DNA of 64,000 nt from an uncultured archaeon (GTDB lineage: Archaea; Asgardarchaeota; Lokiarchaeia; Sigyniarchaeales; SOKP01), in NCBI GenBank assembly GCA_964486045.1, contig CAZALK010000013.1, forward strand, positions 108,879 through 172,878, read 5' to 3'. How positions within the stretch are numbered: the first letter of the stretch is position 1; each line of letters opens with the position of its first letter. Shown one piece after another: positions 52,598 to 53,672 of this stretch. A program made the position numbers and the translations under genes. The notes under the pieces are model-generated. The model was not told where the DNA came from. It saw only the letters and a list, made by a program, of their open reading frames with translations, and made no database searches.

Positions 52598-52846
52598 TTA
52601 TCGTCGTTTTCGAATTTTTCTTGCTTCTCGTTCAACTTCTCTTAAAATCACAACATCATTCATTCTGATAGGTCCTTTAACATTACGTGTAAGGATTCGA
52701 TTTTTATCAGGACCATCTAAGATACGAACCTTGATTTGTGTTATCTCTCCTGTAAGACCAGTTCGGCCAATTATTTGAATAACTTGAGCAGGTGTAGACT
52801 GATCTCTTACTACACGTCCCTTGTTTTTATCTACTAATTTTACTAT
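52598..52846 (-). CDS. rps28e: 30S ribosomal protein S28e (ATA start inferred; missing from the ORF track)
   Basis: Manual translation: [59 protein letters not shown]. Confidence 0.95.
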
Positions 52847-52865
52847 GTGAATTCACCAAGTTATT

Positions 52866-53237
52866 CTATTTCTTCAGATCTTCCATTTTCTTAATTATAT
52901 CATCTAAAATGCCGTCATTTCCTGTTCCTACTTTTTCTATAGCAATTGCACTGGCCGATACATTAATTCTGGCAGCATTACCAAGCTCTTTCTTGCTTGT
53001 TAAATAACTATAAGGAATGCCTTTTTCTTCGCATAAAAGTGGAATGTGGAACAAAATCTCTGGAGGACTAACATCTTCAGCCATGATAACGATTTTGGCT
53101 TGCACCCTTTCTATTGATTTAGTAACCTCATTCATCCCTTTTCGAATTTTTGAATCTCTTCTTTCAGCTATAGTACTTAATGCCTTCTTTAGTTGAGTTT
53201 TTAGCTTATCAGGAACTTTTACTTTAATATATGAAAT
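52866..53237 (-). CDS. rpl7ae: 50S ribosomal protein L7Ae (ATT start inferred, 123 aa)
   Basis: SYIKVKVPDKL...KIRKGMNEVTKSIER...AEDVSPPEI...KKELG; frame is open 34 codons upstream of the ORF-track ATG. Confidence 0.94.
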   Translation of the reverse strand: MSYIKVKVPDKLKTQLKKALSTIAERRDSKIRKGMNEVTKSIERVQAKIVIMAEDVSPPEILFHIPLLCEEKGIPYSYLTSKKELGNAARINVSASAIAIEKVGTGNDGILDDIIKKMEDLKK

Positions 53238-53672
53238 TTTTAACCATCTCCTTCAAATATACATAAATATATTTTCATAATTCATCGATATTCGATACAC
53301 TAATTAATACAAGATTAAAAATAAAATTTGTCTTTTGGGATGAAAAACCTAAAATTTTTTTTAGATGGTTCACTTAAAACCAATAAGTTCATTAGGTAGT
53401 GAACTCATCATTATAACTCGGTTTTGAGGATCTGAATTATCACTTTCTTGTGTTTAGTCTCTAAATCTTTAAATTGTAGGTTTAATATAATATTTAGATC
53501 TTATAAAAATAATTCTTAATGGGGGTTATTCCCATTTTTCGAGTCCTTCATGAGTTCATCACCCCATGCACTTAATTACTAGTTTATTTTAAAGAATCAC
53601 AGTTTTTATATCTTAATAAAATAGAATTACTTATTCTTGGGGTTTTATTTTAATGATAACAAAAAAAAAAGA

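Follow-up and report, generated by a model that had tools for sequence, protein, structure and literature searches.

The rpl7ae-rps28e locus

The window studied here, that is, the whole stretch of 64,000 nucleotides that was analysed, belongs to a metagenome-assembled genome (MAG) of 5.18 Mb and 31% GC from an Asgard archaeon of marine sediment, and the closest named loci are those of Promethearchaeota (Lokiarchaeia) MAGs. The genus of this genome, g1 (Promethearchaeia), includes Loki_b32, and the sister genus g28 includes E44_bin85, contig SOKP01. The reverse strand of the window carries the genes for the ribosomal proteins L7Ae and S28e, with the following features:

52598 to 52846, reverse strand: rps28e coding sequence, 82 amino acids, putative start codon ATA at 52846-52844, Pfam PF01200 at residues 16-78
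52853 to 52857, reverse strand: S28e Shine-Dalgarno (SD) sequence GGTGA, with a 6-nt spacer to the ATA
52866 to 53237, reverse strand: rpl7ae coding sequence, 123 amino acids, putative start codon ATT at 53237-53235, Pfam PF01248
53224 to 53247, reverse strand: out-of-frame mini-ORF of seven codons, ATG GTT AAA AAT TTC ATA TAT TAA, its ATG inside the SD
53244 to 53252, reverse strand: extended SD AGGAGATGG, 6 nt 5' of the L7Ae ATT, pairing with the 16S tail
53246 to 53289, reverse strand: tandem kink-turn-like leader, NAT-GA-NN-WAT-GA / hairpin / GA-AN-GA-G, overlapping the L7Ae SD
53673 to 53873, reverse strand: rpoN, with a TTG start in this genome, serving as an internal control

The L7Ae frame reads TGA AGG AGA TGG TTA AAA ATT TCA TAT, and its first canonical codon, 34 codons 3' of the ATT and inside the Pfam domain, encodes the M of KGMNE; the placing of that codon within the KGxNE motif by the original prediction, which was made from these letters alone, is therefore confirmed. 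The prediction had also put a GGAG about 10 nt before the ATT. A strong SD does precede the ATT, but when the genome's own 16S 3' end, GGATCACCTCCT, is taken as the reference, the register is that of AGGAGATGG with a spacer of 6 nt. The S28e frame reads TGA ATT CAC ATA GTA AAA and closes with the stop codon at 52600-52598. Here the GGTGA predicted 6 nt 5' of the ATA (52846) is in place; the TGA it contains is in frame and delimits the open reading frame, and this SD is kept across the genus. The first canonical codon of S28e lies 61 codons 3' of the ATA, deep within the Pfam match.

Conservation of the start positions

Among 30 genomes of the genus the L7Ae start position is ATT in 26 and ATA in four, with an in-frame stop no more than five codons upstream in all 30. 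It had been proposed that L7Ae initiates at the ATT (53237) to give a normal protein of 123 amino acids, and the occurrence of ATT or ATA at the orthologous Met1 position in 30/30 genus genomes supports this, although an in-frame TTG two codons 5' of the ATT/ATA, abutting the SD, counts against it in 4/30. Outside the genus the position is ATG in all genomes sampled, both within the family (40/40, from 12 genera) and beyond it (20/20), which suggests that the ATT is derived, with a longer SD, and that it probably arose once; SD scores average about 16 where the codon is ATT/ATA and 9.9 where family members have ATG. An overlapping set of named genomes gave 38 ATT, 6 ATA and 36 ATG, and among the 44 with ATT or ATA the codon alternates between the two with no reversion to ATG. 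This persistence is compatible with selection and also with a mutational (AT) bias.

For S28e the comparison has a different outcome, since the codon is fixed as ATT/ATA in the genus for L7Ae but is interchangeable here: across the 30 genus genomes it is ATA in 2, ATG in 5, TTG in 16 and GTG in 7, and a close relative (G013) shares the ATA. Because the same codon varies in this way, we read the ATA as a recent substitution, tolerated where weak starts were already accepted. The prediction that S28e initiates at ATA is supported, as this codon occupies the orthologous Met1 position and there is no usable canonical start.

A probable class of ATH starts across the genome

When the 5' ends of open reading frames without a canonical start were searched for an SD peak at spacers of 4-8, with the expectation taken from flanking spacers, the peak of ATG and TTG was shared by ATA (31 against 5.0 expected), ATC (15 against 3.1), ATT (30 against 12.3) and ACG (5 against 0.4), and the abundant codons AAA, TTA and AAT gave no peak in the same test. 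A second, SD-anchored test found that 111/188 open reading frames with no nearby canonical codon have ATH (H = A, T or C; AUH in the mRNA) at a spacer of 5-7, against a control rate of 10% (binomial p 1e-60). Its re-run gave 112/189, with 143 canonical starts at the same spacing, and an excess of about 93 of 4056 open reading frames (2.3%), a count that is subject to an assembly contamination of 7.8%, covers SD-led starts only and depends on an SD score and gene calls specific to this analysis. As the test requires a strong SD and an open reading frame of at least 70 codons, the figure of about 93 is probably a lower bound. On this evidence roughly 90 or more further genes without a canonical start have, almost certainly, an ATT, ATA or ATC start preceded by a strong SD. 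A comparison of 83 ATH candidates with the loci collected yielded no additional orthologs.

The original prediction had spoken of relaxed ATN start selection as a property of the lineage. Non-canonical initiation as a lineage trait is borne out by the orthologs and by the genome-wide SD spacing; its extension to any ATN is not, for the class is made up of ATA, ATT and ATC, together with a few CTG and ACG.

Several individual genes show the same behaviour. The start of uS14 is ATA or ATT in 20/20 genus genomes and that of uL15 is ATT in seven relatives within the genus, while the A/V-ATPase D subunit has ATH in 27/30 genomes, all of them from within the family. The last of these genes (L332; G000 C7:44899, reverse strand) begins one codon past an in-frame TAA, and the frame that precedes it, which contains the SD, ends in a conserved KYY..KV and is probably the end of the upstream gene. 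A second actin paralog (L292:1024-2166, forward strand = G000 C24:48523) has ATT in five genus genomes and TTG or ATG at the same position in sister genus g28; the main Lokiactin starts with ATG throughout. Orthologs of rpoN alternate between ATG and ATA, ATT, ATC, GTT or ACG, with a mean SD score of 6.6 for the 29 ATG orthologs and scores of 12-19 for the 14 non-canonical ones (Mann-Whitney p 4e-7, the genomes not being independent). SDs are stronger in the non-AUG orthologs of RpoN, L7Ae and uS14. Judged from these alignments, the trait is fixed genus-wide for L7Ae, uS14 and aIF1 and across the checked family members for A/V-ATPase D, and labile for S28e, RpoN, L24e and uL15.

Distribution among Asgard archaea

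For 18 genes of the superoperon, the genus had 27 non-canonical calls among 361 (two false calls removed) and the other genera in its family 17 among 396; outside the family there were none among 287, with 12 unresolved. Automatic non-canonical calls for S17 in the analysed genome and for P1 (L160) were dropped, an ATG being available. A sample of 800 kb, drawn from two genomes of a neighbouring family, gave a ratio of ATH to canonical starts of 5:23, compared with 112:143 in the analysed genome (Fisher p 0.008). Outside the family there is also the RpoA1 gene of what is presumed to be a Lokiarchaeum ossiferum genome (L389:11081-14233, reverse strand), which reads TAA AAA ATC TCA with GGTGT 6 nt 5'; the ATC aligns with the ATG of RpoA1 in the analysed genome, no ATG occurs before codon 27, which is inside the Pfam match, and this gene appears to start at ATC. 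Given such cases in the neighbouring family, the comparison indicates that ATH starts are enriched in the family yet graded and not exclusive to it. The ATC of L. ossiferum RpoA1 also makes the claim testable in culture (the Ca. L. ossiferum B35 genome is 6,035,313 bp; PMC9834061).

Initiation machinery and proposed mechanism

The initiator tRNA is canonical, with A1-T72, three G-C pairs and a CAT anticodon. An intron directly follows the anticodon in its gene (G000 C1 ~583600-583735, L297), which stands upstream of aIF2-beta at a distance of about 0.9 kb. The 16S motifs at 530, 790, 1338-1339, 1400 and 1492 are present, the factors aIF1, aIF1A, aIF2-beta and aIF2-gamma are all intact, and the alignment of aIF1 to its M. 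jannaschii counterpart covers the whole protein. Inspection of the initiator tRNA, the 16S motifs and aIF1 thus revealed no defect that would account for tolerance of AUH, and looking at aIF1 and aIF2, as the original prediction had suggested, produced none. What is supported of its proposal of relaxed selection is the use of non-canonical starts, which occur behind strong SDs; a visible fault in the machinery behind them does not. One candidate was considered and rejected: aIF2-gamma (L403:1486-3087, reverse strand = G000 C1:76553-78154) carries in most family members an N-terminal extension with a helix-hairpin-helix domain (HHH_5) at residues 4-60 and a basic linker, but the extension is patchy. 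In genus g22 the match begins at residue 132-136, as it does in two g1 genomes that retain AUH starts, and for that reason the extension was discarded as the cause.

The gene for aIF1 itself belongs to the class:

L058:1474-1791 (G000 C1:612768), reverse strand: aIF1 gene, putative ATT start 9 nt past AGGTTGTGA, conserved in the genus

ATT was found at 22 readable loci of the genus, and the first canonical codon is at position 55, past a Zn knuckle matching that of M. jannaschii aIF1. Elsewhere in Asgard archaea aIF1 begins with ATA or CTG in several families and with a canonical codon (ATG/TTG) in others, L. ossiferum among the latter.

We consider it very likely, on comparative evidence, that initiation occurs at AUU in L7Ae, at AUA in S28e and at kindred codons elsewhere. 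A strong SD would pair with the 16S tail and bring the near-cognate codon, 5-7 nt further on, into the P site; the SD geometry at near-cognate starts is that of ATG and TTG genes. Since the initiator tRNA is canonical, the 16S motifs are present and the initiation factors are intact, we infer that ordinary Met-tRNAi (CAU) tolerates the third-position mismatch, so that the proteins would begin with methionine. AUH starts would then be weak yet sufficient, compensated by strong SDs, and their weakness may set the expression level of the genes concerned.

Alternative explanations

Essential, abundant proteins with odd start codons could be reconciled with ordinary initiation if the mRNA were edited to AUG, or if a modified initiator tRNA read AUH as cognate, as in mitochondria. 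We regard this as improbable, although it fares better than the other alternatives: editing of AUU, AUA and AUC to AUG would need three separate chemistries, the initiator tRNA is of the canonical type, and the association of AUH with stronger SDs argues that it is a weak codon rather than a cognate one.

Translation from a downstream canonical codon, giving truncated proteins from decaying genes, matches the output of several gene callers, which give an L7Ae of 112 amino acids. This is very unlikely, as the genes are single-copy and normally essential and the part upstream of that codon is 76-88% identical in the genus. Moreover, S28e would drop to about 21 amino acids, and aIF1 would be left with half a SUI1 domain and no Zn knuckle.

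Slightly less probable again is that L7Ae starts at the out-of-frame ATG in the SD and reaches its frame by a +1 ribosomal frameshift, or by polymerase slippage, in the run of five A residues. An ATG or GTG does lie 10 nt 5' of the ATT in 30/30 genus genomes, and the analysed genome has the 5-A run. However, the SD (GATGA/GGTGA) necessarily includes the upstream triplet, for which no separate SD lies within working distance, the A-run varies among relatives (ATT AAA C, ATT AAT A, ATT TAT A, AAT AAA G, ATT GAA T), and in three of them (L008, L010, L011) the upstream frame ends after two codons. No conserved shift site joining the upstream AUG frame to L7Ae was found among the genus orthologs, and a frameshift in this gene would leave S28e, uS14, aIF1, RpoN and the genome-wide peak unexplained. 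Codons 2 and 3 of the mini-ORF are not conserved and three relatives have the two-codon stop; going by the alignment, we judge the mini-ORF to be a by-product of the SD sequence.

That the sequence is wrong, through an extra A or a misread ATG in sequencing or assembly, can practically be dismissed, even though the data come from a MAG and the L7Ae start adjoins a homopolymer, because the A-run is the same in the contigs of both runs, with no A missing, ATT or ATA stands at the L7Ae site in 44 separately deposited genomes, and the ATA of S28e recurs in G013. The first of these contigs (run X1; depth about 255, possibly the source sample) spans 52495-53444 with 0 differences and 0 gaps; the second (run X2; depth 132) is from a different strain and has its sole gap at 52400, with none in the 5-A run, and among the 22 of its 23 substitutions that are listed none falls on the L7Ae or S28e start.

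A kink-turn-like element in the L7Ae leader

The leader motif upstream of L7Ae is present in 67/70 loci of the family. Its outer C-G pair is kept in 60/60 and its inner stem pairs (4b-9b) in 56-60/60; it shows tandem G-A/A-G pairs between flanking stems, a 3-nt bulge with U as its last base, and an overlap with the SD, and the outer C-stem is short, at 2-3 bp. A search of Rfam with the leader gave no match. By eye, the frame of the motif is recognisable in other families across the order, with unrelated stem sequences. The motif also occurs in relatives with an ATG start, and so it predates the ATT.

It is known that L7Ae autoregulates through a kink-turn in its 5' UTR (Daume et al., 2017; PMC5539422). 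Like that l7ae leader, the present one has GA-containing Kt-b and Kt-n strands that adjoin or overlap the SD; it differs in having two tandem kink-turn-like motifs and an AUU start, whereas S. acidocaldarius l7ae uses GTG. The leader is therefore, by analogy, a likely L7Ae autoregulatory operator, and its kink-turns would add L7Ae-dependent translational repression on top of the AUU start.

Relation to known initiation systems

Individual elements of this picture have precedents. In E. coli, infC (encoding IF3) has an AUU start with translational autoregulation (Butler, 1987, reviewed in PMC4705826). A conserved AUU behind an SD is common to both systems, and in the genus the functional counterpart of IF3, aIF1, starts with ATT. 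In contrast, AUU is rare in E. coli and AUH here would stand on some 90 or more genes, including those for structural ribosomal proteins; L7Ae and S28e are ribosomal proteins and not fidelity factors. It is aIF1 of the analysed genome that fits the pattern of a conserved non-AUG start in a fidelity factor, the feedback itself being conjectural by analogy. That the AUU start of aIF1 makes an IF3-like feedback loop which sets start stringency throughout the cell is speculative, and we put it at somewhat less than an even chance. It is more doubtful still that AUH is a routine fourth class of start, on 100 or more genes, with the level of AUU-started aIF1 acting as a dial for cell-wide stringency. 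If so, ribosomal proteins, A/V-ATPase D and the actin paralog would come under this dial, and the feedback of bacterial IF3 and that of eukaryotic eIF1 would both have an archaeal counterpart, in the lineage that is nearest to eukaryotes.

Compensation of weak GUG and UUG starts by the SD is established in prokaryotes (Belinky, Rogozin and Koonin, 2017; PMC5622118), and the pairing of a weaker start codon with a stronger SD in RpoN, L7Ae and uS14 is of the same kind. That study counted one AUG-to-AUU switch among 61,358 ancestral AUG starts, whereas switches to AUH appear frequent and recurrent here. Bacterial-type AUU starts and SD compensation are thus both known, and as far as sequence comparison can tell the novelty would be one of scale, in AUH on about 2% of genes.

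For archaea, initiation is SD-led and uses standard aIF1, aIF1A, aIF2 and tRNAi, all of which applies to the genome analysed here. The AUH class contrasts with the reviews that we checked: the archaeal repertoire is given as AUG, GUG and UUG (PMC7531240; PMC4705826), the first of them listing these three only and leaving AUA and AUU unmentioned, and in vitro the aIF1 of S. solfataricus discriminates against an mRNA with AUU (PMC4705826), which counts against the present model. Ribosome profiling of H. volcanii placed near-cognate codons at about 30% of putative alternative sites, which were set aside (PMC7261190); unlike the starts described here, these are not the main starts of essential genes. 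A literature search of incomplete coverage turned up no paper that describes AUH starts in Asgard archaea. Some 2% of genes started by AUH, essential ones included, in a relative of the ancestor of eukaryotes would bear on the evolution of strict AUG selection.

There is a practical side to this, in that gene callers truncate or mis-start the markers L7Ae, uS14, S28e and aIF1, as well as the actin paralog, in a heavily studied group. Database calls for L7Ae vary: NCBI records such as P0003 and P0017 give the 123-residue protein beginning MSY, others give 112, 125 or 144 amino acids, and the 144-residue call reads TGA as Trp. The expectation that gene callers would miss or truncate such genes consequently holds for the deviating calls and fails for those NCBI records that already have the 123-residue form.

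Other features of the window

In the window, rpl24e stands apart from the L7Ae-S28e pair, behind S6e and with the solitary rpoN between them (52598-57428); in many relatives it is near S28e. Two further genes have a possible AUH start: a small GTPase at 38075-38623 (forward strand), where GGTGA is followed by 9 nt and ATT, and the frame at 42093-42479 (forward strand), with a GTG within the SD and an ATC 5 nt on. An element of about 100 bp at ~53381-53483, with no match in Rfam, has about nine other copies in the genome at 80-87% identity, one of them in the opposite orientation at ~56860-56955 of the window, and is possibly a small non-autonomous mobile element. A repeat at ~56205-56480 has two more copies on contig C10, at 82-85% identity.
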